A stretch of DNA of 64,000 bases from Caulobacterales bacterium (GCA_044445785.1 JBIOEF010000002.1:13831-77830); one strand, 5' to 3'. Shown: positions 19,973 to 63,480, counted from the stretch's first letter. Numbers and translations: made by a program. The notes: generated by a model not told the origin, from the letters alone.

Positions 19973-20027
19973 AACGTCCGCCTTGGGTCGCAAGCGGCCG
20001 TTGGCAGACAGCCGGAAAGCGGACTTC
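19973..20027 (-). repeat. GTCCGC palindromic repeat unit (reverse orientation)
   Basis: Reverse complement gaagtccgctttccggc-tgtctgccaac-ggccgcttgcgacccaaggcggacgtt matches the units at 58210, 59663 and 63427. Confidence 0.8.
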
Positions 20028-20059: not shown

Positions 20060-22261
20060 CTACCCTGCGGCCAGCTTGGGCTCCGTCGGTGCGATCACCT
20101 GGGCGATTCCGACCAGCAAGGCGGCCGGAGAGATGGGTTTGGCGACGACGTCATTCATTCCGGCGGCCAGATAGATTGCTCGCTGGTGGGCCATGGCATT
20201 GGCCGTGAGGCCGATTATCGGGACATTTGCGGCCTCGCCACGCAACGCGCGGATGGCCCTCGTGGCCTCGATGCCATCCATGTTCGGCATCTGTATATCC
20301 ATGAGGATCAGATCATGGCCGCCGCGCTTGGCTGCAGCCAGTCCGGCGAGGCCGTCTTCCGCCTCCTCGACGTCAGCGCCCAGGCGGGACAACATTGTGC
20401 GGGCGACAAGACGATTGGTGCCGTTGTCGTCCACCAGCAGGATTCGGATGCCGCCCAACAGGACCTCCTCCGCCTCGCCGGCCATCGCGGCGCTGGCCCT
20501 CGTCGCTTCGAACTCGAACCAGAAGGTCGAACCTTCGTTTTCGACGCTGGAGAAGCCGATGTCGCCCCCCATCATGTTGGCCAGGGCCCGGGCGATCGAG
20601 AGCCCTAGGCCCGTGCCCCCGAAGCGCCGGGTGGCGTCGCTCTCGGCTTGTCGAAACCGTTCGAAGAGGTGGGCCTGAGTCTGAGGGGACATGCCGATTC
20701 CCGTGTCCTCGACTTCGATGCGAACATGGCCGCGCCCCTCAGTGGTGGTGACTTCCCGAAGACGCACCGCCACGTGGCCCTTGGCGGTAAACTTCACGGC
20801 GTTTCCGACTAGGTTGAAGATGACCTGTCGCAAGCGCAGCGGGTCAACTTCGAACCAAAGCGGCCCGGCCTGCACATCGCAGGTCAGGTCCAGGCCTTTT
20901 TCGAGCGCCTGGCCACGGAGCAAGGCCGACACCGCCTTCAGAGTCTCGGCCACATCCGTCGGCTCAGGCGTCAGGTTCAATTGGCCGGCTTCGATCTTCG
21001 ACAGGTCTAGGACATCGTTCAGGAGCTGGGTCAGCAAGTAGCCGCTGTCGTTGGCCTGACGCATCAGTTGCCGCCCTTCCGGCGAAATGTTTTCCGCTTC
21101 CAGCAGATGGAGGGTCCCCAGAATTCCGTTCATGGGGGTTCGTATCTCGTGGCTGACGTTCGCCAGGAAGTCGGCCTTAGCGGCGTTGGCGGCCTCGGCC
21201 TCAGCTTTGGCTTCGCGCAGCGCGACCTCGTCCGCCATTTGCGCGGTGATGTCTCGGCCAACGCAGATGATCGCGGTGGCTGCGCCGTTGTCGCGAACGG
21301 TCGCGACGCTGGTCTGAAACCAAAGCCAGCGTCGATCGCGGTGGCGTACGCGCGCGGTTACGACCTCCGTCCGCGTGGGATCGTTGGACAGCCTGGCGAA
21401 CACCTCCGCCATCTCCCTCGCGCTCTTGGGGTGCAGCAATTTGGCAAGGCGAACGCCGATCAGCTCCTCGGGGCGATACCCCAAGGCGGCCAGAGACGCG
21501 GGAGAGACGTACTGGCAAGCGCCAACCAGATCGATCCGCACGATCACGTCGGTGATGGTCTCCGCTAGAATCTCGTAGCTGTTCAGGCTCTGCGTCAGCC
21601 AGCGCTGCTGCGCCTGGGCGGAAGGCGTGCCAAGGGCGCGGCCCAGGTTGAAGATAGTCGCCAGGCCCAGCATCGACCATACCGGAAGCAGCTGGCGCCA
21701 GTCCCGTCCGTCGGCCAGGGCGAGCGTGGTCAGGGCCGCCACCGCGGGCGCCGCGCCCGCTAGGAGGAACATCACCGGGGCCGTGTAGAACAGCATCGCA
21801 AAAATGGAGGCGATAGCCACGATCAGACTGACGCCGCTGGCGAGTCCCTCCGGCAAGCCGGTGGCGCAAAGCACGCCGCCAAGCAGGAGCCACCAAAGAT
21901 TTATCGTCACATAGTTCGCGATGAAGTTGCCGCGCTGCGGCCACCCGACCGCGCTACCTCGGAACTGCTCGCGGGTGGCGAACCACGACCAGGCCTCCAC
22001 CACGAGGCCCCCGACTATCCAGCCGATGCCAGCCGCCTGCGGTACGATGAGCAAGGCCGCCAACCCGCCGAGAACCACCATGACAACTCGGATCGCGACT
22101 ACGGCATGGAGAAGTGCGGCCGCTTCATCCATTCGCTTGGCGAAGGTCGCGCCCGCTCGGCCGCCGCCGGGATCTGGCGCCGAGGCCTGGATCAACCGCC
22201 CCACGGCTGGTCTGATCCACCCCTCACGGCTGCGGCCGAGGCTTGCGCCGTCTCTGCTCAA
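20060..22261 (-). CDS. Membrane-bound hybrid sensor kinase (TM-PAS-HisKA-HATPase-REC)
   Basis: FLANVSHEIRTP, NLVGNAVKFT, GTGLGL, ILMDIQMP; true start may be downstream (MDEAAA). Confidence 0.92.
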   Translation of the reverse strand: MSRDGASLGRSREGWIRPAVGRLIQASAPDPGGGRAGATFAKRMDEAAALLHAVVAIRVVMVVLGGLAALLIVPQAAGIGWIVGGLVVEAWSWFATREQFRGSAVGWPQRGNFIANYVTINLWWLLLGGVLCATGLPEGLASGVSLIVAIASIFAMLFYTAPVMFLLAGAAPAVAALTTLALADGRDWRQLLPVWSMLGLATIFNLGRALGTPSAQAQQRWLTQSLNSYEILAETITDVIVRIDLVGACQYVSPASLAALGYRPEELIGVRLAKLLHPKSAREMAEVFARLSNDPTRTEVVTARVRHRDRRWLWFQTSVATVRDNGAATAIICVGRDITAQMADEVALREAKAEAEAANAAKADFLANVSHEIRTPMNGILGTLHLLEAENISPEGRQLMRQANDSGYLLTQLLNDVLDLSKIEAGQLNLTPEPTDVAETLKAVSALLRGQALEKGLDLTCDVQAGPLWFEVDPLRLRQVIFNLVGNAVKFTAKGHVAVRLREVTTTEGRGHVRIEVEDTGIGMSPQTQAHLFERFRQAESDATRRFGGTGLGLSIARALANMMGGDIGFSSVENEGSTFWFEFEATRASAAMAGEAEEVLLGGIRILLVDDNGTNRLVARTMLSRLGADVEEAEDGLAGLAAAKRGGHDLILMDIQMPNMDGIEATRAIRALRGEAANVPIIGLTANAMAHQRAIYLAAGMNDVVAKPISPAALLVGIAQVIAPTEPKLAAG

Positions 22262-22400: not shown

Positions 22401-22433
22401 GAGTCCGCTTTGGGTCGAAAGTGGGTCGAAAGC
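22401..22433 (-). repeat. GTCCGC repeat, partial and internally duplicated
   Basis: gagtccgctttgggtcgaaag-tgggtcgaaagc; reverse complement contains tttcgacccaaagcggac. Confidence 0.75.
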
Positions 22434-49009: not shown

Positions 49010-49084
49010 GTCAGGTCCTGGCCAACTCAGACGACCATCGGCATTGGCCACTGGCGCTCCACGCGCCAGATCTGGGTGCAGTTG
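49010..49084 (-). repeat. Direct duplicate of deacetylase 3' end and downstream bases
   Basis: Matches 50364-50440 with few mismatches/indels. Confidence 0.88.
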
Positions 49085-49091
49085 GGACTGC

Positions 49092-50252: not shown

Positions 50253-50381
50253 GCGCATCTCCCCCTTGGAAGGTTCGCAGGACCTTGGCGGTTCGCCCAC
50301 ACGCCAAGCGGCTGAGATGGAAACCGAGGTTCCGGGGAACGAGGGCCCATCAGGCCAGATGGCGTCACGGTCCTGGCCAAC

Positions 50382-51011
50382 TCAGACGACCATCGGCATC
50401 GGCCACTGGCGCTCGCCGCGCCAGATCGGGGTGCAGTCGGCCGGGAAGGCCTGGGTGAATTCGGCGCCGAGGTCCTTGGCCTCATCGAGGAACTCCGCCA
50501 GTCGGCGCATGGCCCCGGTCGGCAGATCGTGGACCACGACGACCGGCCAGGCGAGGCGGCGGGTGTCGGCGAGCGCGGTCTTTGGCCACCCTTCGATATC
50601 TTCCCAGTCGCGGGGCACGCTGTTCCACAGAACGCAGCTGTAACGGTCGGCGATCAGGCGATCGCTGGCGGCGGGGGACATCATCTGCGGGCCGATGACG
50701 CCGCCGCCGGCGGCGGGGCGGAAGAGCCTGTCAGCGTCGGTCAGATCGCCCAGCAGCGCTTGGGTGCGATCGATCTCCTGGACTGCCTCCGCGGGCGGCA
50801 GGCTCCCCAGCTGCCGGTGGGACCAGGTGTGGTTGCCGATGCGGTGGCCGCGGGCGAGGACGTCGTCGGCGATCGTCCGCGCGCCGGGCTTGGCCAACAT
50901 CCGGCCCAGCATGAAGAACGTCGCCTTGACCTCAGCGGCGTCCAGCACGTCGAGCACCTGCGGAGTGGCGACCAGGTCCGGGCCGTTGTCGAAGGTCAGG
51001 GAGAGGTTCAC
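50382..51011 (-). CDS. Polysaccharide deacetylase (NodB/CE4)
   Basis: LTFDNGP, ATFF, GNHTWSH, FRP, VHD. Confidence 0.9.
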   Translation of the reverse strand: MNLSLTFDNGPDLVATPQVLDVLDAAEVKATFFMLGRMLAKPGARTIADDVLARGHRIGNHTWSHRQLGSLPPAEAVQEIDRTQALLGDLTDADRLFRPAAGGGVIGPQMMSPAASDRLIADRYSCVLWNSVPRDWEDIEGWPKTALADTRRLAWPVVVVHDLPTGAMRRLAEFLDEAKDLGAEFTQAFPADCTPIWRGERQWPMPMVV

Positions 51012-51722: not shown

Positions 51723-51983
51723 TCAAGGTTTTCTTCCGCCGTTGCCCTCGACGTAATGTGGTGAGGCTTCGAGACCTTCAAAGAAGTACTCGATGGGGAC
51801 GCCAAGAACCGCAGCGACGGCCCAAAGACGTGCTGCGGAGATTCTGTTCTGTCCGCATTCGTACTTCTGGACCTGCTGGAAGCCGACGCCTACGGCGTCG
51901 CCCACGTCCTTTTGAGTGAGGCCCACAAGCCTCCGCCGCTGGCGAATGCGGCTCCCGACATGCGTGTCCATATCCAGGTCCAT
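51723..51983 (-). CDS. XRE-family HTH regulator
   Basis: HVGSRIR.RR...GLTQ, FQQVQKYE.G.NRISA. Confidence 0.92.
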   Translation of the reverse strand: MDLDMDTHVGSRIRQRRRLVGLTQKDVGDAVGVGFQQVQKYECGQNRISAARLWAVAAVLGVPIEYFFEGLEASPHYVEGNGGRKP

Positions 51984-52034
51984 GCGTGCGATACCCGCCG
52001 CCCGAACCCCGCGCGAAAGAAAGAGCCAACTGCC

Positions 52035-52049
52035 TTAACAAGGCGTGAA
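52035..52049. promoter_or_regulatory. CtrA-type box upstream of XRE gene
   Basis: TTAA-N7-TGAA (TTCA-N7-TTAA on minus strand), overlapping GANTC 52047-52051. Confidence 0.55.
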
Positions 52050-52122
52050 TCCCAAGGCTAAGGGCCGCTGTGGCCGTTGACGAGAGGGGTGCGGCCGCGG
52101 GCTCGCGACAACGGGCGTTGGC

Positions 52123-52961
52123 TGTGCTGTCAGTCCAACGGCAACCTGTCTCCGTCGAGGCGCAGTGAGCCCAAACCCAGCCGAGGCTACCCCATGACTG
52201 TCCGCCACTCCGCCACTCCGCCAATGCGGCGGAGCGTCTCTCCTTGTAGATTTCGCGGCTGACTAAGTGGCGCTCCTGGCTGAAATGGTTGTGGACCGAG
52301 GCGTGAACCGAGACGAATTTCTGCAGGGTCTTCATCCTGCGGAGCCGGTTCATGGCCCGCTCTCTTCGTCGGAAGGGCAGGTGGCTGTTCTCGGCCCGAT
52401 TGTTCTTCCAGCGGCGCACCGGCGCCTGCCGGCTCTTGGCGTTCAGCGCCTTCAGCGCCGCGCCGTAAGAGGCCAGGCTATCGGTGACGATCGCCTGGGT
52501 TCTGCCATGCCGCTTCATGGCTTTCTTGATGAACTTCAACGCCGCGGCCTTGTCGCGCGCTGTGGTGACGTAGGACTCCAGCACTTCGCCCTCGTGGTCG
52601 ACAGCGCGCCAGAGGTAACGCTTCTGGCCGTTCACCTTGACCACCATCTCGTCCAGATGCCAGCGCCAGTGGGTGTGTTGGCGCATCGCCTGAACCCGCT
52701 TCTTGCGGAGCTGGCCGGCGAACATCGGACCGAACCTGTTCCACCAGTGCCGCACCGTCTCGTGACAAATGTCGATGCCGCGCTCGAACAGCAGGTCCTC
52801 GACGTTGCGCAGCGACAGCGGGTATCTCACGTACATGAGCACTACGAGCCTGATCACCTCGGGCGAGGAGTCAAACCAGCGGAAGGGGTCGTCGGACTTG
52901 GCCATGGCGGGCACTTATCGGGCCCCGGTTAGCGCGCCAAGAAATTTGCGCTGACATCACC
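52123..52961 (-). mobile_element. IS6-family insertion sequence (about 839 bp)
   Basis: Imperfect terminal IRs tgtgctgtcagtccaa / reverse complement ggtgatgtcagcgcaa; IS6 DDE transposase inside; no flanking TSD seen. Confidence 0.88.
52187..52905 (-). pseudogene. IS6 transposase with C-terminal frameshift (reads through to 51778)
   Basis: YPLSLRNVEDLL.ERG, WHLDE, NNRAENSH; extra 8-bp unit tccgccac at 52201-52223 shifts frame before the in-element stop at 52187. Confidence 0.8.
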
Positions 52962-53422: not shown

Positions 53423-53476
53423 GCGTCTGCTTTTGGGAGCAGGGGGTCGCGTGTTCGAATCACGCCGCCCCGACCA
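53423..53476 (+). pseudogene. 3' fragment of tRNA-Pro(TGG), att-like remnant
   Basis: Anticodon arm tctgc-ttttggga-gcagg (one extra T), T arm GTTCGAATC, ends CCGACCA; no recognisable D arm. Confidence 0.8.
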
Positions 53477-53516
53477 TGGTCGAGATTACCGATGGCAAGC
53501 GGAGCGTCGCCCCCAA

Positions 53517-55082
53517 CTATTGCAACGTTTTCGGATCGAGGATTGCCCGACGGATCGATCGATAGTCGTCGCGGGGCACATCTACGTAGCCTTCGCCCTC
53601 GATCTCAAATAGCCCTTCGGGCGCCCCAGCCGTATTGATCAGTTCGACGTAACATCCATAGTCAATCTTGTAGACATCGTACCGTTTGCCCGGTTCGTCG
53701 CGAGAAGAAACGTTCTTCTTGAGAATATGAAGCAAGCGCGAGTCGAATAATTTCTCAATCCCTTCGTCTCGCACATTACTGGGGAACAGGAAGGCTCTAG
53801 CTCTTCGCTTTCCGATCACCCCATCCACTATGTGGTCGAGCAACGCACCTAACTCTGGGCTGCTTCGGATCGCTGCCGCCTTGTCTTGGTTATACCAGTC
53901 TCGCGCCGCCGCGCGAACGTGGCTCATTGCGATTCGTTGGCCATATCCTTTGGTGGCAATCTTCGCGGCTAGATTCAATGCGTCGCGCGGTACCCCCTCG
54001 ACTGCTCGCACGAACTCTTCAAACACTGGGTATTGGGTAAAAGCAGTGTGAATGAAGGAGTCAGCGTCTGCGAAGACAGGCGGATTACCCTCAGCACTCG
54101 TGTAGTGCCGAAATATCAACGCCTTGATAAAAGCAGTCGCTTTATCCTGGCTATTGTCGAAGACAAGGAAATCATCGAGATTCAAGTCCGCCGACAAATC
54201 CGCACCCAACTCCAAGCCTATATATTCTCCCCTTTCCTTCAAGATGACAAACTGAGATCTATGTTCTATTGCAGCAATCTTAACGGTGATCTCGTTGATC
54301 GGCAGTAATATTCTTCGCAGAAGGTCCGCTAGATAAGGTTGAAGTTCAAGGGGTAGTTCGCTCCACTCATCGATCAGGAGCCAGATTCGAGGTGTGTCCA
54401 GCACGGCTATTAAGTCGCCTAAGGTGGCCGCAATATTTCCGAAGGTTAGATGTACCAGTTCCACGCCAGAGCGAAGTATGCGTCGCGAGGTTTCTGTCGT
54501 TCGCTCTCGTTCGTGACGAGCCTCAATATCTACAGACACCGGCTTTCCCGTGCTGATCTTCCCCGAGAGGCCTGCGCTCTCCTTGGCCGACCCGGTGTCC
54601 GTCTGTTCAACTTCCGCAGTTCCCGCGATGCGGATCGTACTTAGCGCTTCTTGTAGACGGTCCAGGCGCCGTGTCAGCTCGCCTGGGTTGGGATGTTGGT
54701 CGATGCGTTCGAGCGTGAGGCCGTACAGTTCGTCATACAGGCCCCCGAGCACATCTACCACCAACGTCGACGCCCGCTCGGACATCGCCCTGCCACCGTC
54801 TGAGTATATGGACCCATTGGAGCCGATAGATCTGAGATCCAGGTAAATAGCGCGCTCTCCGCGACCCTCGACAATCTCAGCGAGGTATTTCAGAGCGTGT
54901 GTCTTACCTGTTCCTCTACGCCCGTAGATGACTTGATTGTTGGTCGTGGAAAGCAAGTCGAAAAGAGGGGCTGAGTCGACAAAGGTCGCTACCAAAGTGG
55001 CATCGGACGATTTCTCCGCGCGTTTATTGAAGGCGATCAGCGCTTTATGAATGCGCTCAAGCACTTCCGAGTCTTCAGCCAT
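53517..55082 (-). CDS. Standalone P-loop ATPase (ORC/CDC6-like or STAND-like)
   Basis: Walker A GRRGTGKT, Walker B WLLIDE, GVPRDAL sensor; visibly lower GC than core genes. Confidence 0.8.
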   Translation of the reverse strand: MAEDSEVLERIHKALIAFNKRAEKSSDATLVATFVDSAPLFDLLSTTNNQVIYGRRGTGKTHALKYLAEIVEGRGERAIYLDLRSIGSNGSIYSDGGRAMSERASTLVVDVLGGLYDELYGLTLERIDQHPNPGELTRRLDRLQEALSTIRIAGTAEVEQTDTGSAKESAGLSGKISTGKPVSVDIEARHERERTTETSRRILRSGVELVHLTFGNIAATLGDLIAVLDTPRIWLLIDEWSELPLELQPYLADLLRRILLPINEITVKIAAIEHRSQFVILKERGEYIGLELGADLSADLNLDDFLVFDNSQDKATAFIKALIFRHYTSAEGNPPVFADADSFIHTAFTQYPVFEEFVRAVEGVPRDALNLAAKIATKGYGQRIAMSHVRAAARDWYNQDKAAAIRSSPELGALLDHIVDGVIGKRRARAFLFPSNVRDEGIEKLFDSRLLHILKKNVSSRDEPGKRYDVYKIDYGCYVELINTAGAPEGLFEIEGEGYVDVPRDDYRSIRRAILDPKTLQ

Positions 55083-55228: not shown

Positions 55229-55256
55229 AATGACTGCGTTCGACCCATTGCTGACC
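55229..55256 (+). repeat. Degenerate GTCCGC repeat unit R1
   Basis: aatgactgcgttcgacccattgctgacc versus consensus atgtccgctttcgacccaaagcggac. Confidence 0.55.
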
Positions 55257-55630
55257 CTCAAGAAGGGTGGCAGGTCTGCGGATCAGGTCGTCCTCGCAGC
55301 GTCATTCCATGGAACACCCTGACTGGCGGCGCGACGCCTTCCATGAGCTCCAAGAAAAGATCGCTCGACTTAGAGCCGCTTATCGGCTCGGCGATAGGGT
55401 ACGTTACTGCTGCCGCCAGTGACTTCAGTGTAGGGCGTCTGGTTGTCTCCATTGGCGGTTCGTCGGGCTCCTCCGCACCGGTCGCTGTTCGAAACAACTC
55501 GTGGGGCGGCGGAGCAGTGTCCCCCCGGCTCGCCCGAGCGACTCCACTACCGAATTTTCACTCAGAATGGCAGACGGGGTGTCAAGCCAGCGTCAGGCAG
55601 CGCAAATCCGGTATTTTGCCGGTGCTCGGA

Positions 55631-55677
55631 ACGTCCGCTTTTCGGCACGGTACCGAGGTCCGCTATCGACCCAAAGC
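55631..55677 (+). repeat. GTCCGC repeat unit R2, left part (completed by 57062-57069)
   Basis: gtccgcttttcggc-spacer-gtccgctatcgacccaaagc | IS | ggacattc. Confidence 0.9.
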
Positions 55678-55765
55678 AGATGGGGTGGATGGCTCCCGTT
55701 CCCGGCGTCTGAGCGCCAAAGTGTGGGTTGCTGTCGAGCAAACCACGAGCAGGGAGCCATCCGTC

Positions 55766-56800
55766 ATGCAGATTACCACCGTCGGCCTGGATCTGGCCAA
55801 GAGCGTCTTTCAAGTTCACGCGATCAACGGCGCCGGTGAGGTTGTCGTGCGCCGAGCGCTGAGGCGCGCGCAGGTGTTGCCGTTCTTCGGCAAGCTTGCG
55901 CCGTGTCTGATCGGGATCGAGGCCTGCGGAACGAGCCATCACTGGGCGCGGGAGCTGGTCCGTCTTGGGCACGAGGTGCGGTTGATGCCGCCGGCCTACG
56001 TCAAGCCGTACGTGAAGCGGGGCAAGACCGACGCCGGCGACGCGGAGGCGATCTGCGAGGCGGTGAGGCGCCCGACCATGCGCTTCGTTCCGATCAAGTC
56101 GGTTGAGCAGCAGGCGGCGCTCTCGCTGCATCGGACGCGTGACCTGCTCGTGCGTCAGCGCACGCAGCTGGTGAACATGATCCGCGACCTGCTTGCAGAG
56201 TTCGGCGTCGATCTTCCACGCGGGATCGGCCATGCCCTGGCCTTCGCCCGGCGAGCGGTCGCCGGCGAGGCGCAGGCGCTTCCCGACCTGGCGGCCAGGG
56301 TGATCGGCAGTCTCGCCGAACAGGCGCTCGAAGGTCAGGCTCGCATCCGCCGGCTTGAACGCGAGCTTCTGGCCTGGCATCGCTCCAGCGATCTGGCCAG
56401 ACGCATCGCCACCGTGCCGGGGGTCGGACTGCTGGGCGCCACGGCCTTGGCGGCGGCGGTCACCGATCCCACCCAGTTCCGCTCCGGCCGCCAGTTCGCC
56501 GCCTGGTTGGGCCTCACCCCGCTGCAGAACTCCAGCGGCGGCAAGGAGCGGCTGGGGCGGATCTCCAAGATGGGCGACCGGTATCTGCGCCGGCTCCTGA
56601 TCGTCGGCATGACTTCGCTCGTGCGCCAGTCCAGACACAACCCCGGCGCCACCGCGCCCTATGTGGCCGACCTGCTCGCCCGCAAGCCGGCCCGCCTGGC
56701 CACGGTCGCCATGGCCAACAAGGCCGCCCGGGCGATCTGGGCGATCATGGTGCGCGGCGGCGTCTATCGGACGCCCGCTCCAGCCATGGCGACGGCCTAA
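55766..56800 (+). CDS. IS110-family DEDD recombinase/transposase
   Basis: GLDLAKSVFQVH, IEAC, KTDAGDAEAI, GLTP...SSGGK. Confidence 0.96.
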   Translation: MQITTVGLDLAKSVFQVHAINGAGEVVVRRALRRAQVLPFFGKLAPCLIGIEACGTSHHWARELVRLGHEVRLMPPAYVKPYVKRGKTDAGDAEAICEAVRRPTMRFVPIKSVEQQAALSLHRTRDLLVRQRTQLVNMIRDLLAEFGVDLPRGIGHALAFARRAVAGEAQALPDLAARVIGSLAEQALEGQARIRRLERELLAWHRSSDLARRIATVPGVGLLGATALAAAVTDPTQFRSGRQFAAWLGLTPLQNSSGGKERLGRISKMGDRYLRRLLIVGMTSLVRQSRHNPGATAPYVADLLARKPARLATVAMANKAARAIWAIMVRGGVYRTPAPAMATA

Positions 56801-57044
56801 GCCTCGGTCAGCGCCGCCAGCAGAAGCGCTCAGAGGTTGCGAGGACGATGTGACGTGATGGCGAAACGGTCAGACCGAGACGAGGACAACCCGACTAATG
56901 TCCAGGGCGACTTGAGCCCGCAAAGCAGAATGGGACCTCGTTCGCGCAAACCATCAAGGCCAGCGGTCAATGACCGCGCAAACAGGTCGAACACAAGACT
57001 GCACCCAACCACCACGCCAAACCTTCACATCACCCCTTGCAACG
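56801..57044 (+). ncRNA. Putative bridge/seek RNA region of the IS1111-type element
   Basis: Long 3' non-coding end; aatgtcc (56897-56903) is the reverse complement of the right target flank and caaagc (56921-56926) equals the left target flank, both in an internal loop; boundaries approximate. Confidence 0.75.
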
Positions 57045-57161
57045 CGGGAGCCATCCACACAGGACATTCGGGGGTCCGCGTCCGGACGCTAACGACGAGG
57101 ACCTGGCAGACGCGCGCCACGCGAGTGTGTAGCGTCGTCAACCCAATGGGCGGGGTCGGTC

Positions 57162-58136
57162 ATGCAGAAGTCAGCCATCGTCGCGATCATGGGGGCCCTG
57201 TTGTCGTCGCTCGCCGTGGCTCAGCCAAATCCGGCGCCGAAGGTTCCGCCAGCGATACCTTCCGTCGTTGTCGGTGATCCCGGGCCGACCGGGGTCAGGA
57301 TCGACAAGGACGGGGTGTTCGCGAACTTCTTCCCGGCCAAGGCTCGGGGCAGGCGACCGGCGATCCTGTTGCTGGGCGGATCGGAGGGCGGCCTCAGCCC
57401 GGGCGGCGAAGGTCCGATCAAGGCGCTCACCGCGGAAGGATTCGACGTCCTGTACCTTTGTTATTTCGGCTGTCCCGGCACGCCGCATCAGCTGGTGGCG
57501 GTGCCATTGGAGACCTTCGACCGAGCGCTTGCGTTCCTTCGGCGCCAGACGGGCGTTGATCCGAACCGGATCGGGGTTGTCGGTGGTTCGAAGGGCGGCG
57601 AAGCGGCCTTGCTCGTCGCGACGCGCCAACCGAGACTGAAAGCGGTGGTCGTCGGGATGCCTTCCAGCGTGGCTTGGCCCGGTGTCACAAATTCACTGAC
57701 GATGCAGCCGAGTTGGACCTCGGGCGGCGCGCCCGTGCCCTTCCTGCCCTACGCCTTTGCCTCCTATGCGAAGGCCGGCATCTTCGGCCTCTACAACGAC
57801 GCCTTGCCTACCCTGGCGCAACATCCAGAGGCCGCCATTCCAGTCGAGCAAGTCGCCGGCCCCATCATGCTGGTCTGCGGCGAAGCAGACACCCTTTGGC
57901 CGTCATGCACGATGGCGGATCAGATATCGCGTCGGCTGACGTCCAGGGGTAGGCCGGCGCCGACAGTCTTGCGCTACGCCGATGCGGGCCACCAAGTATT
58001 CGGGCCTCCAGTGCAGAACACGAACTCGAACGACTGGCTCGCGAGCCTAGGCGGAACCGTCAACGGGAACGCGACGGCGCGGGCTGACGGCTGGCCAAAG
58101 GTTGTAGCCTTCCTAAAGATCAAGCTTAGACCCTAG
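57162..58136 (+). CDS. Secreted alpha/beta hydrolase (BAAT/acyl-CoA thioesterase C-terminal-like)
   Basis: Signal peptide, LGGSEGG, GGSKGGE, D.LWPS, Y..AGH. Confidence 0.88.
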   Translation: MQKSAIVAIMGALLSSLAVAQPNPAPKVPPAIPSVVVGDPGPTGVRIDKDGVFANFFPAKARGRRPAILLLGGSEGGLSPGGEGPIKALTAEGFDVLYLCYFGCPGTPHQLVAVPLETFDRALAFLRRQTGVDPNRIGVVGGSKGGEAALLVATRQPRLKAVVVGMPSSVAWPGVTNSLTMQPSWTSGGAPVPFLPYAFASYAKAGIFGLYNDALPTLAQHPEAAIPVEQVAGPIMLVCGEADTLWPSCTMADQISRRLTSRGRPAPTVLRYADAGHQVFGPPVQNTNSNDWLASLGGTVNGNATARADGWPKVVAFLKIKLRP

Positions 58137-58195
58137 TCTTCAGCATGGCGGGGCCGGCCCTTCGCCGACAACGAGATGCGTGCGCTCACCACCCA

Positions 58196-58846
58196 TCACT
58201 GACAATGGGAAGGTCCGCTTCCGGGCAACTCACCTGAGTCCGCTTTCGACCCAAAGCGGACATTCAGCAGTTCCGTTCGTGGCGTGCGAGGGTAGGGAGG
58301 CATGCTCGCATGCTCGCGGTAGAGCGCGGCGTCCATCGAGTAGACCACCGCTTCGAACTCGCCACCTTCATCACTGAGCCGCGGCGCATGATTGAATCTC
58401 ATTCCGATCCGACGCATCACGGCGATGCTCCGCATGTTTGGGGCGTCAGCGACCGAGATGACGCGCGCAGTTCCAAGGCTTTCGAAGGCATAAGCAAGCC
58501 ACGCGGACGCGGCCTCCGTGGCGTAGCCATTCCCCCAATAAGCACTGCCAAAGCGCCAGCCAATCTCGAGGTCGTGCGGAAACCAAGCCTCAATGGACAG
58601 ACCGCACATCCCCAAGAATGTGCCGTCACCTCGTCGCTCGACTGCAATCTTGCCGAAACGCCGCGTTGCGAAACACCGGTTCGCGCCGTCAGCTTGCTCG
58701 TCGGACACGGTGCGCGACAGGGCAATACCGCCCAAGAATTCGACAACGGCCGGGTCGGCGTTGATTTCAGCGTAGACGGGAAGGTCCTGCGTGCGGAACG
58801 GTCGCAGGATCAGCCGCTCGGTTTCCAGAACTAATCCCCGGTCCAT
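58196..58846 (-). CDS. RimJ/RimL-type GNAT acetyltransferase
   Basis: LETERLILRP, EIGWR...YWGNGYATEA, N.RS..VM.RIGM; tail reads through repeat R3. Confidence 0.88.
   Translation of the reverse strand: MDRGLVLETERLILRPFRTQDLPVYAEINADPAVVEFLGGIALSRTVSDEQADGANRCFATRRFGKIAVERRGDGTFLGMCGLSIEAWFPHDLEIGWRFGSAYWGNGYATEAASAWLAYAFESLGTARVISVADAPNMRSIAVMRRIGMRFNHAPRLSDEGGEFEAVVYSMDAALYREHASMPPYPRTPRTELLNVRFGSKADSGELPGSGPSHCQ
58210..58265 (+). repeat. GTCCGC repeat unit R3
   Basis: aaggtccgcttccgggc-aactcacct-gagtccgctttcgacccaaagcggacattc. Confidence 0.92.
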
Positions 58847-58938
58847 GTGTCTAACATGCTCGACATCGAGGAGCGTCAGCCTAGGCGTCAATTGCCCGCC
58901 GTACCAGTGTTCAAACAAGACACTTTAGCCGCCCTCAC

Positions 58939-59097
58939 GAGTCCGATATGGGGCGCAAAGCTGCCGATCCGCTACGTGCGCCAAAGGGCAGCTTTGGCCA
59001 AAAGCGCCCAACTATCTTGGGTACCAAGCGTCAGATTTTGACCACTAGCAACCGCCGAAACATCCGCGTTAGGTCCGCTTTCGGCCCGTTGCAGACC
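58939..59097 (+). repeat. Cluster of degenerate GTCCGC units R4
   Basis: gagtccgatatggggcgcaaagctgcc (58939) and aggtccgctttcggcccgttgcagacc (59071). Confidence 0.6.
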
Positions 59098-59148
59098 ACG
59101 CGTCTTCGCGGCACTCTCGGCGCGAGCTTCGCGAACGTAGGGCTCCAG

Positions 59149-59634
59149 ATGCTGAGGAAACGATCGCTCTCCAAAGCATGGGTCGTCGCTAGCCTGTTGC
59201 TCGCGGCGTCCGGAGCTAGCCAGGCGCAGCAGAGCGATCACATGGTCTTGGGGCCGGACCAATTTAAGTTTGATCAGACGCGTTCCGGCGCGGTTCTCTG
59301 CGCGTGGTCGATGTACCTGGAGACTCAGGCGGCAACCAAAGCCTGCGGGCTGACCCGAGGGCCCGCAGACGATGCCATAGACAGAGCAATTCTCGACATC
59401 GACGGCTTCATTATTGCGAACTCCTCGCTTCACCCTACGCGGGCCGCACTGGAGGAGTTCAAGCGACGCACCAATGACGCGTTCATTCGCGACCTTCGCA
59501 GTCGCAGCCTGCGGAAGTTCTGCGAGGGGCCGGACCTGGAAGCATTCCGCGCCGGCTCTCCGGCCGGAATTGCGTCCTCTGTTCGTGCGCTTCTCGCTAA
59601 GCCCCGCGAACCCGTAATGAACCCGTGCCTATAG
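59149..59634 (+). CDS. Secreted hypothetical protein
   Basis: Signal peptide ending ASQA; four Cys. Confidence 0.7.
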   Translation: MLRKRSLSKAWVVASLLLAASGASQAQQSDHMVLGPDQFKFDQTRSGAVLCAWSMYLETQAATKACGLTRGPADDAIDRAILDIDGFIIANSSLHPTRAALEEFKRRTNDAFIRDLRSRSLRKFCEGPDLEAFRAGSPAGIASSVRALLAKPREPVMNPCL

Positions 59635-59718
59635 TTCCGCTCCTCACCCATCTCTGACATCGGGAAGGTCCGCTTTCGGGCATAGCGCCGATGTCCGCTT
59701 TCGACCCAAAGCGGACAT
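59634..59718 (+). repeat. GTCCGC repeat unit R5
   Basis: Degenerate unit plus ggaaggtccgctttcgggc-atagcgcc-gatgtccgctttcgacccaaagcggacat. Confidence 0.92.
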
Positions 59719-59750
59719 GGTGACAACGGGATTGTTTCCGCCGGACCGGC

Positions 59751-60584
59751 CTAAAACCACCCCTCGTTCCTGAGCGAGCGGGCGTAGTTACGGCTGACGG
59801 GCGCCTCGACGCCGTTCGGCAGCTTTAACATGGCGCGACCTTCGATGCGGCGTGCGCCGAGCACCGCGCCTTTCGCCACCCACCAGGAGCGATGGGTCTG
59901 CGCGCCCTCGACGCCCTCAAGTTCGGCGACGGCGTCGGTAAGCCGCATCAGGATCAGGTCGGATCCCTGCGACGTGTGTGCGCGCAGGTAGTGGTCTTCA
60001 GCCTCGACGGCATAGATCTCAGCGCCGCGAAGCTTGGCGGGCAGCCTCTCGAGAAATCGCGGCGGGGGCGCATCAGCGAGCGTGCTGGCGTGCGTATGGA
60101 TTGGGCGACGATTTGCGAGCGCGTTGATGAAGGTCATCGCTAGCGAGACGATCAGCACCGGACCGGCAAGCTCCAACAGCGTTCCGTACGGTTCTCGCCA
60201 AGAGAACAGCCAGCGGGTGACCGCATACACCGCCAGGACGCTCGGCGGGGTCATCACCACCGCGGTTACCGCCGCCATCAAAAAAGGGTGGCGCCGGTCC
60301 GGATCAAACAGCGCGGTCACGACAACATCTGTGGCGAAGCCAAGGCCCGTTCCGCCGACGATCAGCAACAGCCAGTAGATCAAGCGCGACGACAGCGACG
60401 CGGTGACCGTGCCGAACGGGCCGATCAGCGCCAGAAACACCGCCGCCCCGCATGCGATAGCGAAACTGCGGAGCAGACTTTCGCGGTCGAACGTCCGTGC
60501 CCCCCGACCCAGGCGGTTAAGCCACGTGGTCGCTGATTCGGTCACTGGCGCTGCGTCAACGGCAAGGGACGACCGTTCACGCAT
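59751..60584 (-). CDS. Membrane-anchored LytTR regulator
   Basis: Four TM segments then EAEDHYLR, LMRL.DA, QTHRSWWV, PVSR; start uncertain. Confidence 0.9.
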   Translation of the reverse strand: MRERSSLAVDAAPVTESATTWLNRLGRGARTFDRESLLRSFAIACGAAVFLALIGPFGTVTASLSSRLIYWLLLIVGGTGLGFATDVVVTALFDPDRRHPFLMAAVTAVVMTPPSVLAVYAVTRWLFSWREPYGTLLELAGPVLIVSLAMTFINALANRRPIHTHASTLADAPPPRFLERLPAKLRGAEIYAVEAEDHYLRAHTSQGSDLILMRLTDAVAELEGVEGAQTHRSWWVAKGAVLGARRIEGRAMLKLPNGVEAPVSRNYARSLRNEGWF

Positions 60585-60684
60585 GCCGGGCGACCCTTCG
60601 TGCATCGAGCCAGGCGCCGCTTTGAGCGGTGAGCTAGGCCGATCCCGGAAGAAGAGGGAGCGCTGATGGAAGTCCTCCCACATC

Positions 60685-61251
60685 GTGAGCCGCCAAATGA
60701 CGCCGCCATCAAAGACCCTGTCAATCGGACCCGACGCCCAGGATCCATTTCATTCCACCGACCGCGAGCGGTTGATCTGGGGACTTCTCCTATCGGGCCT
60801 GCTCGCGGGCGCGTTGGCGCTGGTTCTGATCGTCGGCGGCAGCGCGCACTTGCATTGGCCGAACCTCTCGTTGTTGGCCGGCCAGCCCGCTGTCTTGCTC
60901 ATCCATATCGGCGGGGCGTTGACCGCTTTGATTATCGGCGCCGGCATCACGTGGGGCGCCAAAGGTACCACCATTCACCGCGCGCTGGGCTGGATATGGG
61001 TGGTCGCCATGATGACAACGGCTGGCGCTTCGTTCTTTCTGCACTTCCTCAACCCCGGCGGGTTCAGCCCAATTCATGCGCTCAGCGCCTATGTCGCGAT
61101 CGCCGTGCCGATGGGCGTCGCGTTCGCTCGCAGGCATGACATCCGCGCCCATCGAAGGATGATGACCGGCAACTTCCTGTTTGGCCTGATCGTGGCGGGC
61201 GCCTTCACCTTCGCCCCGGGCCGACTAATGTGGAAAATATTCTTGGGGTAG
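60685..61251 (+). CDS. DUF2306-like membrane protein
   Basis: KGT..HR.LG..WV, SPIH.LS, HRRMM, FTF.PGR.M. Confidence 0.8.
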   Translation: MSRQMTPPSKTLSIGPDAQDPFHSTDRERLIWGLLLSGLLAGALALVLIVGGSAHLHWPNLSLLAGQPAVLLIHIGGALTALIIGAGITWGAKGTTIHRALGWIWVVAMMTTAGASFFLHFLNPGGFSPIHALSAYVAIAVPMGVAFARRHDIRAHRRMMTGNFLFGLIVAGAFTFAPGRLMWKIFLG

Positions 61252-61268
61252 GGATCACTCCCCGGCGG

Positions 61269-61339
61269 GTCCGCTTTCTGGCGGGGTCCCGAGGTCCGCT
61301 TTCGACCATAGCGGACTCTCAGAGCGTCCGCTTTCGGGC
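61269..61339 (+). repeat. GTCCGC repeat unit R6
   Basis: gtccgctttctggc-spacer-gaggtccgctttcgaccatagcggactc plus an extra gtccgctttcgggc. Confidence 0.9.
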
Positions 61340-61348
61340 ATCCAGATC

Positions 61349-61768
61349 TCAGGTCTTCGCGGGTCTGCCGAGCCTGAGCCACGCCTGCCTATCTTGCTCC
61401 CGAACGAAACACTGAGCGAGCGCCACCAAGGCCCGTCTCGCTTCTCGCTCTTCAATGGTCGCAAAGACCGCCAGGAGCTCGCTGGTGCCCGGGTCCCCGA
61501 GTTGCGCCCTGATGATAGGCTGGATGCGTTCGGGCCCGTCCTCGCCGACGAGAGCCGCGACGCTGGTCTCCAGTCTGGCGGCGGTCTTCACGAGCATTGA
61601 AGCTGAGAGCCTGTTGGCCCCGCGCTCATACTTCTGCAGCTGCTGAAAACAGACCCCAAGCGCCGCGGCGAGGGCCTTCTGGCTGACCTCTAGCTCAAGG
61701 CGTCGGCCGCGGATGCGGTCGCCAATCTCAACGTCGAGACCAGCGTTGTCTCTCGCCACCCGTCCCAC
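61349..61768 (-). CDS. XRE-family HTH regulator
   Basis: IGDRIR.RR....SQ..LA, FQQLQKYERGANRLSA; start uncertain. Confidence 0.88.
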   Translation of the reverse strand: MGRVARDNAGLDVEIGDRIRGRRLELEVSQKALAAALGVCFQQLQKYERGANRLSASMLVKTAARLETSVAALVGEDGPERIQPIIRAQLGDPGTSELLAVFATIEEREARRALVALAQCFVREQDRQAWLRLGRPAKT

Positions 61769-61774
61769 CTCTGC

Positions 61775-62002
61775 CTAGGGTTTGTGGCAAACGTCCGTCG
61801 CTTTGATGCAAGTGTTTCCACAAGGCTTGCCCTTCGTGCAATGTTTGGGCGACGCGGAAGCGGTCGGCGATGCTGGCGCCGCGGCCGGCGGCGGACACTT
61901 GATGAACTTCCCGGTCTTTGGGTCCTTGCAGGCCTTCGCGTCGGCCGCGCCGGCGGCAAGTGCGATGGCAAGCGTCGCGACGATCAAGAGTGTCCGGTGC
62001 AT
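61775..62002 (-). CDS. Secreted Cys-rich miniprotein (modules A+B, 75 aa)
   Basis: MHRTLL signal peptide; CKDPKTGKFIKC and CTKGKPCGNTCIKATDVCH; GGGAGA RBS. Confidence 0.8.
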   Translation of the reverse strand: MHRTLLIVATLAIALAAGAADAKACKDPKTGKFIKCPPPAAAPASPTASASPKHCTKGKPCGNTCIKATDVCHKP

Positions 62003-62127
62003 TGGTTTCTCCCTGTCTACGGTCCACGCTGGACCCACTCTGGGAGGAGGGCAAGCGACAGGCCCGGCGGCCGTGTAGTTTGGGCGCGCTTGCGCCGTGA
62101 GATTCGTGGTCGGGTCCGGGTGGCCCG

Positions 62128-62322
62128 TCAGTCCGGCGACCACGCGCTCAGTCGCCACGCTTCGCCGACCTCGCGTCCTTCAAGATCGATCCAGCCGCGA
62201 TCCGCGCGCCATGAGACTGCTTTGAACATCGCGCCCTTCGGCTCGGAGCGCTCGAAATAGCCGCGGTAGACACGGCCGTCTCTTGGCGCGGCCTCAAGCG
62301 TACGAGGTGCGAGGGCGGTCAT
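62128..62322 (-). CDS. Small hypothetical protein (64 aa)
   Basis: LEAAPRDG start and Trp-rich end, reminiscent of small phage-type proteins. Confidence 0.5.
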   Translation of the reverse strand: MTALAPRTLEAAPRDGRVYRGYFERSEPKGAMFKAVSWRADRGWIDLEGREVGEAWRLSAWSPD

Positions 62323-62382
62323 ACGGCCACGCTATATCCGGCGCCCACTTGGAGTCGAGCTGGCGCCGGGCTGGGTCGCCGC

Positions 62383-62667
62383 CTAGTAGGCGCTGTGGCT
62401 CGTGACTGGCGTTTCGCACTCGACGAACTTGCCTGTCTTTGGGTCGCGGCAACGTCTTGGCGGGGCCTTACACATGTCCGCTGCTACGAACTTCCCATTG
62501 GCGTCGTGGCAATTGTCCTTGGCGTCTAACGTGTAGGGGCCGACGCTTGTGGAGCTGGCGGAATTGGTGGGAGCGGTGTTCCAGCCGTTCCCGGTCTCCC
62601 CCGCGAAGCTGGCAGATGCGAAAGCTAGGGCCGCAGTGGCGGTTAGGATCATAAGCGTGCGGTGCAT
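62383..62667 (-). CDS. Secreted Cys-rich miniprotein (modules C+A, 94 aa)
   Basis: MHRTLM signal peptide; GPYTLDAKDNCHDANGKFV...C and CRDPKTGKFVEC. Confidence 0.8.
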   Translation of the reverse strand: MHRTLMILTATAALAFASASFAGETGNGWNTAPTNSASSTSVGPYTLDAKDNCHDANGKFVAADMCKAPPRRCRDPKTGKFVECETPVTSHSAY

Positions 62668-62741
62668 GACGTTTTCTCCCTTCCGGCAAACTGGCGGGGA
62701 TGGCCGGCGGCGACAAGGGCTGGACGGTTGCCTAGGACGGC

Positions 62742-62996
62742 CTAATAAGCCTTGCTGCCCTGGCTATGCTCGATGGCGATGGCGTTGTCGGGGCGCGGCG
62801 TGGGCTTGTGGCAGACCTTGTTCTTCGCGATGCAAGTGTGTCCGCACAGCTTTCCGTGCTTGCAGACAGGCGCGATCCCGCGAACCGGCGAGGTGTCGGC
62901 CGTAGGTTTCAAGGGACCATGTACGGCCACAGCGTTAGCCGCACCGGCGGCGAGCGCGAAAGCGAGGGCGGCGACAATCATAAGCGTGCGGTGCAT
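62742..62996 (-). CDS. Secreted Cys-rich miniprotein (module B, 84 aa)
   Basis: MHRTLM signal peptide; CKHGKLCGHTCIAKNKVCH; AGGAGA RBS. Confidence 0.8.
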   Translation of the reverse strand: MHRTLMIVAALAFALAAGAANAVAVHGPLKPTADTSPVRGIAPVCKHGKLCGHTCIAKNKVCHKPTPRPDNAIAIEHSQGSKAY

Positions 62997-63066
62997 GGCG
63001 TGTTCTCCTATCCGGCACACTGGCGAGGATGATCGGCGGCTACAAGGGCTGGGTGGTCGCCTAGCC

Positions 63067-63357
63067 CTACCTCGGCCCCTTCCCAGGGATGTATTGGCGC
63101 TCGTCCGGTGTCGCCACGTGGCAGACCTTGTTCTTGGCGATGCACGCGTGGCCACAGGGAACCCCGTGCTTGCAGTGCGGCGGCGTCACGCATTGGCTGT
63201 GACCCACGAACTGGCCGTTCGCGGCGTGGCACATGCCGTTGGCGTCAAGCTTGAATGGACCGGCCGGGACATTCATCGAGGCGCTCGTGCCGAAACTGGC
63301 GCCGGAGAGAGAAGCGAATGCGAGAGCCGCTACGGCGGCGATGACCAGGCTGCGCAT
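63067..63357 (-). CDS. Secreted Cys-rich miniprotein (modules C+B, 96 aa)
   Basis: MRSLVI signal peptide; GPFKLDANGMCHAANGQFV...C and CKHGVPCGHACIAKNKVCH; GGAGG RBS. Confidence 0.8.
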   Translation of the reverse strand: MRSLVIAAVAALAFASLSGASFGTSASMNVPAGPFKLDANGMCHAANGQFVGHSQCVTPPHCKHGVPCGHACIAKNKVCHVATPDERQYIPGKGPR

Positions 63358-63426
63358 GGGTTTCCTCCCGCTTTGTCCGTAGTCTACGCTGGCAGGCCCG
63401 AAACGAAAGTGTCTCAGCAGACCGCC

Positions 63427-63480
63427 GAAGTCTGCTTTCCGGCATGGCACTGATGTCCGCTTTCGACCCAGAGCGGACAT
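63427..63480 (+). repeat. GTCCGC repeat unit R7
   Basis: gaagtctgctttccggc-atggcact-gatgtccgctttcgacccagagcggacat. Confidence 0.92.

Follow-up and report, generated by a model that had tools for sequence, protein, structure and literature searches.

The right end of a 64,000-nt stretch of Caulobacterales DNA (GCA_044445785.1 JBIOEF010000002.1:13831-77830, hereafter the window) raises the question of how unrelated genes come to stand in a row between copies of one short repeat. Seven such repeat sites lie on the plus strand between positions 55,229 and 63,480. An earlier note on this DNA, made from the sequence alone, took them for recombination sites or scars of a cassette-capture system whose recombinase acts in trans. 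Here we compare the source assembly of the window (G000, 89.6% complete) with other genomes (further G labels). Judging by the names attached to close homologs, the host likely belongs to the Caulobacteraceae. The repeats are probably the joints of gene modules that genomes gain, lose and trade with one another, and likely serve as crossover sites for tyrosine recombinases of about 208 residues.

The site and its arrays

All seven sites were recovered where they had been reported, far above chance; with one mismatch allowed, GTCCGCTTT gave 37 matches against 14.45 ± 3.5 expected, a count reached in 0 of 100 shuffles. Each site is built on a 24-bp core, in which a 9-bp arm, an asymmetric 6-bp spacer and an inverted 9-bp arm follow one another, as at 58238–58261 (R3, spacer CGACCC); weaker symmetry continues for 3 bp more on either side, so that the arms are weakly conserved to 12 bp. 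Upstream of the core there may be a half-site, that is, a left arm followed by a different, mostly CGGGCA-like spacer. The half-site starts exactly 25 bp before the core in 190 of 396 sites, and 16 of the 396 have a third unit that starts 58 bp before it. Because the half-site is nearly absent from two genomes of genus g17 (3 of 59), we take the core to be the minimal unit.

The cores in the window start at 55232 (R1), 55658 (R2), 58238 (R3), 59073 (R4b), 59693 (R5), 61294 (R6) and 63455 (R7), all on the plus strand. A bipartite design had been proposed for R2, R3, R5, R6 and R7, and each of these five does have a half-site 25 bp upstream, but R2 is not intact and the spacer of R6 has 5 nt rather than 6. 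R2 (55633–55680) consists of half-site, 10-nt linker and a core whose right arm is cut by an insertion sequence (IS) of the IS110 family. R3 (58180–58261) and R5 (59635–59716) have perfect cores (58238–58261 and 59693–59716) preceded by half-sites (58213–58227 and 59668–59682) and by an extra CCACCC-type unit 58 bp upstream (58180–58203 and 59635–59658). R6 (61269–61340) has a half-site, the short-spacer core (61294–61316) and a second half-site (61326–61340), and R7 (63430–63478) a half-site and a core. R1 (55232–55255), the first of the array, and R4 are degenerate, as had been noted: with a position weight matrix (PWM), R1 scores 27.3 bits and R4b (59073–59096) 21.7 bits, and R4a (58941–58990), a very degenerate pair of site-like units seen by eye only, falls below threshold. 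Beyond the window, the plus-strand array goes on with seven further PWM matches on contig C2. The modules between the sites have a GC content of 61–65%, against 69% in the core block. Two minus-strand sites had been missed, a half-site with core at 19976–20024 (31.6 bits) and a core at 22403–22426 (24.9 bits), which bracket one gene for a 690-residue hybrid kinase (20060–22132). Both lie outside 1–15 kb and 23–48 kb of the window, where the repeat had been said to be missing and where we did not find it.

The earlier note saw a hairpin in the core, a reading that the variation among sites does not favour. Of 394 sites, 296 have CGACCC as their spacer and 36 have CCACCC, and inner arm bases vary between sites. 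Left and right arm variants pair at 8.26 of 12 positions, against 8.20 ± 0.04 after shuffling within genomes (p = 0.07), a comparison whose power is limited by strong arm conservation. When site regions were folded, the core alone folded consistently, as would any palindrome, and an Rfam scan of window 48–64 kb returned nothing at E ≤ 1. Because the arms show no clear excess of compensatory pairing, the site seems better read as double-stranded, with two independent protein-binding arms around a directional spacer, than as a hairpin under selection. In loxP and dif sites, likewise, two protein-binding arms flank a directional spacer.

In a profile scan of the source genome, 53 sites, spread over 17 contigs, scored 14 bits or more, and the reversed genome had none. 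The core, with two mismatches allowed, is present in 119 of 401 genomes of the family, whereas a control pattern gave one match in total; positive genomes mostly hold 1–8 copies, and seven hold 21–59. Sites no more than 5 kb apart in the source genome share a strand in 19 of 20 neighbouring pairs and oppose each other in one. The same holds for 363 sites on stretches from 14 genomes picked for holding sites (loci R* and V* were excluded from junction and orientation counts), in which neighbours are co-oriented in 214 of 221 cases and opposite in 7, at a median spacing of 806 bp. Intervals mostly contain one gene each. Gene direction is independent of site direction (16 with and 12 against in the source genome), in line with the note's modules in either orientation. 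Many sites lie 5–160 bp past a stop codon, with a co-directional upstream gene at 24 of 40. The arrays are also polar, and the CCACCC spacer is commonest at the last site: it occurs there in 13 of 59 arrays (7 of 8 in g17), compared with 0 of 59 first sites and 4 of 126 inner sites.

Elsewhere, the exact two-part pattern of half-site and core, which is too strict, matched two loci in genome contigs (one Phenylobacterium metagenome-assembled genome), the R5 composite had no match in plasmids, and the core pattern occurs at six loci in viral contigs of prophage size. At G089:C24:175355-199522 (L009/L209), two long arrays of opposite direction stand facing each other on either side of 5 kb of sensor genes; no recombinase was seen in between. 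A small membrane-protein gene occurs twice in the source genome (C2:94425-94682 and C7:14526-14781; 83% nucleotide identity), each copy between site-like sequences, and the ends match poorly.

Probable exchange of modules between genomes

Comparison of relatives makes it very probable that gene modules are exchanged at the sites. With sites masked, matches between genomes of at least 200 nt and at least 80% identity numbered 43, with 73 scorable ends; three matches were dropped from the counts (one duplicate from overlapping loci and two IS110 pairs). Eleven of the 73 ends fall no more than 15 nt from a site in each of the two genomes; trials with shifted site positions gave a mean of 0.11 and a maximum of 2 in 1000. 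At these 11 ends, which represent 9 distinct junctions, the sites have like orientation, the shared block always lies to the same side, and past the site 300 nt of unrelated sequence follow. A module of 0.8 kb is bounded by a site at either end in both G414 and G162, with different neighbours on both sides. Between a pdxH-like and a dnaJ-like gene, G089 has four sites and three modules, whereas G062 has two sites around a single, different module; at another locus it is G062 that has eight sites (seven modules) and G089 two (one module), with flanks whose 86–90% likeness extends as far as the sites. The earlier note's view of the repeats as recombination sites of a cassette system is thus supported by sites that are clustered and co-oriented and by relatives' module boundaries that fall at sites far above chance.

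For the modules of the window, which the note described as unrelated genes bounded by the sites, the evidence differs from one to the next. Its gene labels agree with Pfam: a secreted alpha/beta hydrolase (BAAT_C; 57162–58136, plus strand), a GNAT acetyltransferase (Acetyltransf_3; 58196–58846, minus strand) whose frame runs into R3, a secreted protein without a Pfam family (59149–59634, plus strand), a divergent pair of a LytTR membrane regulator (minus) and a DUF2306 protein (plus) at 59751–61251, and an XRE regulator (HTH_3) with four or five small secreted proteins of no family (61349–63357, minus strand). The 0.38-kb interval between R1 and R2 (55256–55632) contains no convincing gene, as no open reading frame passes the codon model. 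One module, that of the secreted protein, has a clean site-to-site counterpart and one, GNAT, a partial one; the other three have none of their own. Close relatives were sought in 78 genomes of the genus, and the GNAT and secreted-protein modules in 351 family genomes, which gave one match. The secreted-protein module has a 71% identical (nucleotide) homolog in G001, with site variants at the same positions (a degenerate core on the left, a CCACCC-type unit and half-site on the right) in a locus that is otherwise unlike the window and has other neighbours. Copies of the GNAT module that are 99% identical but differently flanked occur in metagenome runs X2, X3, X4 and X6, possibly one campaign, and in X5. 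The XRE module, compared with five site-rich genomes, gave short paralog matches only.

Several results weigh against exchange at the sites. Of the 73 match ends, 62 are not at a site in both genomes; many of these look like ordinary paralog ends. The GNAT copies in X2 and X3 break on the left about 33 nt inside the module, with five letters matching an arm end 18 nt farther out, and on the right at the tip of a 31–35-nt element, 20 nt before R4b, in neither case in a spacer. The crossover can be placed no closer than within the 49-bp composite. No site lies near relatives of the hydrolase (70–72% nucleotide identity; 3 of 3 cases), and none was seen at relatives of the LytTR and DUF2306 genes (65–80%; 0 of 10 and 0 of 4 loci) or at the ten loci (51–83% amino acid identity) from a metagenome scan for DUF2306. 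In view of these distant homologs without sites, the hydrolase, LytTR and DUF2306 genes may therefore be either captured genes of an ordinary kind or passengers. In the material searched, which was contigs only, with no sequencing run covering more than 8% of the region, neither circles nor excision junctions were seen. Joints in metagenome contigs came from repeats or other organisms and were not used.

Among pairs that have a half-site and share the upstream module, the 10-nt linker differs in four of five (few pairs, ungapped comparison), a hint that a second crossover may take place in the spacer of the half-site. Window 59019–59050, at which the GNAT copies of X2 and X3 stop matching, is a 31–35-nt stretch ending in CTAG that is shared with unrelated X6 contigs; it looks like the remnant of an IS end.

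A candidate enzyme and competing explanations

Which enzyme would act on these sites? The strongest candidate is a small tyrosine recombinase, and we consider it rather likely to be the enzyme. Among 60 PF00589 loci from ten site-rich genomes, a core lies within 1.5 kb of four of five full-length members of a family of 206–208 residues and of one of the 55 others. Ten of 30 genes of the small recombinase have a core on the opposite strand 35–42 bp past the stop codon, and many of the 30 have a half-site variant about 75–85 bp before the start (read by eye), such that the 208-residue protein is flanked by variants of the site. A search for arm pairs that ignored the spacer placed one no more than 300 nt from 12 of 29 family copies and from 7 of 27 copies on viral contigs, compared with 1 of 40 other recombinases. 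A relative on an Escherichia coli plasmid is flanked by the same arms with other spacers.

Residues R59, K87, H156, R159, H182 and Y191 are invariant in 23 sequences of the small recombinase, and its predicted, alignment-based fold is a lone catalytic domain like those of XerA and Cre, with about 25 low-confidence residues ahead of the first helix. Xer models match only from model residue 104–131 onward; no intI model matches, and the protein aligns without the IntI insertion. We found no named family and no solved close relative. The family comprises at least 7,828 sequence clusters, occurs on 347 plasmids and is present in 84 of the 401 genomes.

If the small recombinase works as Cre does at loxP or Xer at dif, each arm would bind one protomer, strand exchange would occur within the spacer, whose asymmetry would set direction, and crossover between direct repeats with matching spacers would excise or insert a module. 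Arrays would therefore grow with every site pointing in a single direction, whereas the orientation and promoters of the genes would be left as they are. More tentatively, the spacer classes (core, half-site and CCACCC-type terminal unit) may allow replacement by double crossover besides insertion of circles, and the recombinase gene may be a site-flanked, often decaying module that acts in trans and is then lost, while the arrays remain.

Other results weigh against this enzyme. No arm pair of at least 14 bits is found at any of eight recombinase copies from other alphaproteobacterial families. A 208-residue enzyme has no core-binding domain, which leaves unexplained how a full arm would be held; 'simple' tyrosine recombinases carry this domain according to the accessible text of PMC8138268. 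At the level of genomes the association is slight, with a core in 33 of 84 genomes that have the small recombinase and in 86 of 317 others (odds ratio 1.7, among kin that are not independent). Of the seven genomes with at least 20 sites, only G397 has an intact copy; G414, G209 and G162 have remnants, and none was found in G000, G089 or G203. G062, which is 99% complete and has 12 sites, many of them perfect, has only the Xer pair as PF00589 matches. The note's recombinase in trans thus holds in that the window contains none, but none was found anywhere in the 89.6% complete assembly either, so that 'in trans' would here mean another replicon, an unassembled contig or a past visitor. Many copies of the gene are broken, which fits a transient, self-mobile enzyme and leftovers resembling attC-site clusters that have no integron integrase (CALINs), yet leaves room for XerCD or another enzyme. 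Half of all CALINs lie in genomes without IntI, as given in the accessible text of PMC4889954.

That the sites are true crossover sites served by another enzyme, either host XerC/XerD or another recombinase in trans, with the small recombinase a mere passenger, is therefore to be weighed, although we think it unlikely. It would account for the site-rich genomes that largely lack an intact small recombinase and for the near-identical sites of G062 beside nothing but its Xer pair. The layout also matches that of the pdif (Xer) modules of Acinetobacter as described in the accessible text of PMC13141974: two arms and a 6-bp spacer, genes in either direction and several spacer classes, exchange there needing matching spacers. 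However, the arms here are mirror copies of one GC-rich sequence, not distinct XerC and XerD boxes, which differ from each other and are AT-rich (Table 1 of the same source), and neighbouring sites are direct (7 of 221 opposite) whereas pdif sites are alternately inverted (PMC13141974, same text). The arrays are chromosomal and the candidate has 208 residues, unlike XerCD. Moreover, 282 of 401 genomes have no core match although Xer is nearly universal, and the site lies at a fixed offset from the small recombinase, whose E. coli plasmid relative has the same arms. A serine recombinase fares no better. All three large serine recombinases of the source genome (C11:29527, C8:44318 and C56:15070) lie 1.7–7 kb from a site, but no core lies within 1.5 kb at 9 of 9 loci (with one half-site-like match) and G203 has no PF00239 match; the proximity therefore suggests that arrays favour integrative islands.

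The IS110 element in R2 bears on a different explanation. It is 1.38 kb long (55681–57062, plus strand; transposase 55766–56800, PF01548 and PF02371) and lies in the right arm between two GA copies, with the displaced arm end at 57063–57068. We compared it with copies at loci L162, L199, L202, L112, L113 and L188. Of eight copies with the same left end, four (window, G414 and two in G203) sit at the same base of the right arm of the core, three in an arm-like stretch on the other strand and one elsewhere. Judged from these positions, one IS110 subgroup uses the site arm as its insertion target; other subgroups with related ends do not. The guide RNA region of the arm-targeting element (57 kb side or leader) should encode the arm, which would give separate evidence on the site. 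To the right of R7 (from window 63836 to 78697 on contig C2) there is another, divergent IS110-like gene, which is not in a site.

Members of the IS110 family target repetitive extragenic palindromes (REPs), and the repeat could be a dispersed palindrome of the REP or miniature inverted-repeat transposable element (MITE) kind, perhaps a terminator, that piles up in accessory DNA, with modules turning over by homologous or slipped recombination between copies or through a site-targeting IS. Such an element would suit the IS110 insertions, the position of many sites just past stop codons with co-directional genes upstream, copy numbers from 0 to 59 among relatives and the off-site breaks of the GNAT copies. 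Like the GTAG/CGTC REPs of Di Nocera et al. (2013; PMC3733652, accessible text), the sites are short intergenic palindromes, often placed right behind a stop codon, of lineage-variable copy number. That text defines REPs by an unpaired GTAG or CGTC foot, a 4–5-nt loop (CGTC), a CCA tail and head-to-head dimers; by comparison, the sites have no foot or CCA tail, keep a fixed 6-nt spacer, stand head to tail and are confined to accessory arrays. Set against a REP or MITE are also the consistent orientation of the sites whatever the direction of the genes, the invariant asymmetric spacer between freely assorting arms, the polarity of the arrays, the link to a recombinase gene and the fact that no RAYT/Y1 transposase (PF01797) was found in the source genome at its 89.6% completeness. 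We regard this explanation as improbable.

Integron attC sites have RYYYAAC … GTTRRRY cores, and cassette genes mostly face one direction relative to them. Integrons and CALINs resemble the present arrays in several respects, namely unrelated modules of one or two genes set in rows between sites of like orientation, clusters with no enzyme nearby (accessible texts of PMC4889954 and PMC8618304), typical cargo (GNAT, hydrolases and small unknown proteins) and site-targeting IS110 elements; neighbouring sites share a strand in 214 of 221 pairs, in keeping with CALINs, whose sites lie on one strand less than 4 kb apart. Unlike in integrons, none of the eight window site regions has attC cores enclosing the repeat, the arms show no clear sign of a folded single-strand substrate, genes face either way and each has its own upstream region, no IntI was found in the 89.6% complete assembly and many short arrays occupy several loci. 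In its accessible text, PMC4889954 reports no integron, In0 or CALIN in 243 alphaproteobacterial genomes and calls the gap 'extremely puzzling'. It is hardly credible that the array is a CALIN on which an integron integrase acts, with the repeats as divergent attC sites: same-strand sites 0.3–2.5 kb apart with one or two genes each follow the CALIN spacing rule (PMC4889954, same text) and one RYYYAAC..GTTRRRY pair lies just upstream of R4b, but this pair encloses no repeat, the other seven of eight regions have no pair, genes face both ways, the arms show no clear excess of compensatory pairing, the five PF00589 matches of the source genome (not scored against the IntI model) are all more than 10 kb from a site, and the small recombinase matches no intI model. 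The array works like an integron array or a pdif chain, yet lacks defining features of both and of REPs, and the note's statement that the repeat is neither attC nor a classical REP stands.

Nilsson, Karlsson and Haggard-Ljungquist reportedly described, in 2004, a repeat on the flanks of the variable slot that holds fun(Z) in phage P2. In AF063097, the site to the left of fun(Z) shares its arms with the present sites (30.8 bits when the arms alone are scored), its right arm being identical to that of the core, and the spacers of both P2 sites turn up again next to copies of the small recombinase in enterobacteria; the second P2 site, at 16.4 bits, scores no better than the best reversed-control match (16.3). 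Although the spacers differ, and P2 has one slot with a single cargo rather than long direct arrays, the similarity of the arms suggests that the fun(Z) repeat probably belongs to the same site family and is its published precedent. Searches of the literature, short of most subscription papers and of supplements, yielded no account of this site in long direct arrays, nor of this recombinase family.

Crossover at these sites by the small recombinase leads to a wider proposal, which we put forward tentatively: a third widespread class of cassette system may exist beside integrons and pdif modules, in which a tyrosine recombinase with only a catalytic domain, mobile and flanked by sites in its own right, assembles self-expressed genes into polar arrays at double-stranded, spacer-addressed sites. 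Such a system would fill the alphaproteobacterial integron gap, and its recombinase would be the missing enzyme of the P2 variable slot.

Neighbouring elements and wider meaning

Left of the array, an IS6-family transposase gene (51778–52914) is followed by a displaced 3′ part of tRNA-Pro at 53423–53477 (55 nt, 94.5% identical to the gene on contig C165), which ARAGORN miscalls as tRNA-Leu. This likely attachment remnant would therefore place the end of an island just left of the array. Between it and R1, 53517–55082 is a low-GC (53%) gene for a 521-residue ORC/CDC6-like ATPase with a weak PADLOC match to mad8 (E = 9e-6). It is a possible defence gene; PADLOC gave weak matches only, and we claim no defence role. 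Farther left, a 72-nt direct repeat (93%; 49014–49085 and 50369–50440) surrounds the gene of a 388-residue secreted protein and is unrelated to the array site. Within the XRE module, 61775–63357 encodes four tandem small secreted proteins (75–96 residues) whose cysteine-rich ends are related (C-x-x-G-K-x-C-G-x-x-C-I-x-K-x-x-V-C-H) and whose upstream regions are duplicated (98 nt, 84% alike). They belong to no Pfam family, and short DNA matches to their genes occur in G162, G203, G251 and G414.

In one alphaproteobacterial family, about 30% of 401 genomes contain a cassette joint different from that of integrons, some in 20–60 copies, and modules that are 85–99% alike appear to move between species at these joints. 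Should the small recombinase prove to be the enzyme, its 208 residues and spacer-coded sites would make it a compact tool for engineering, and a very large, unstudied family would gain a function. The 24-bp core would then also serve as a tag for recently traded adaptive genes in soil and peat bacteria, and an integron-like gene-collecting system would sit in a class that has been reported to be without integrons.

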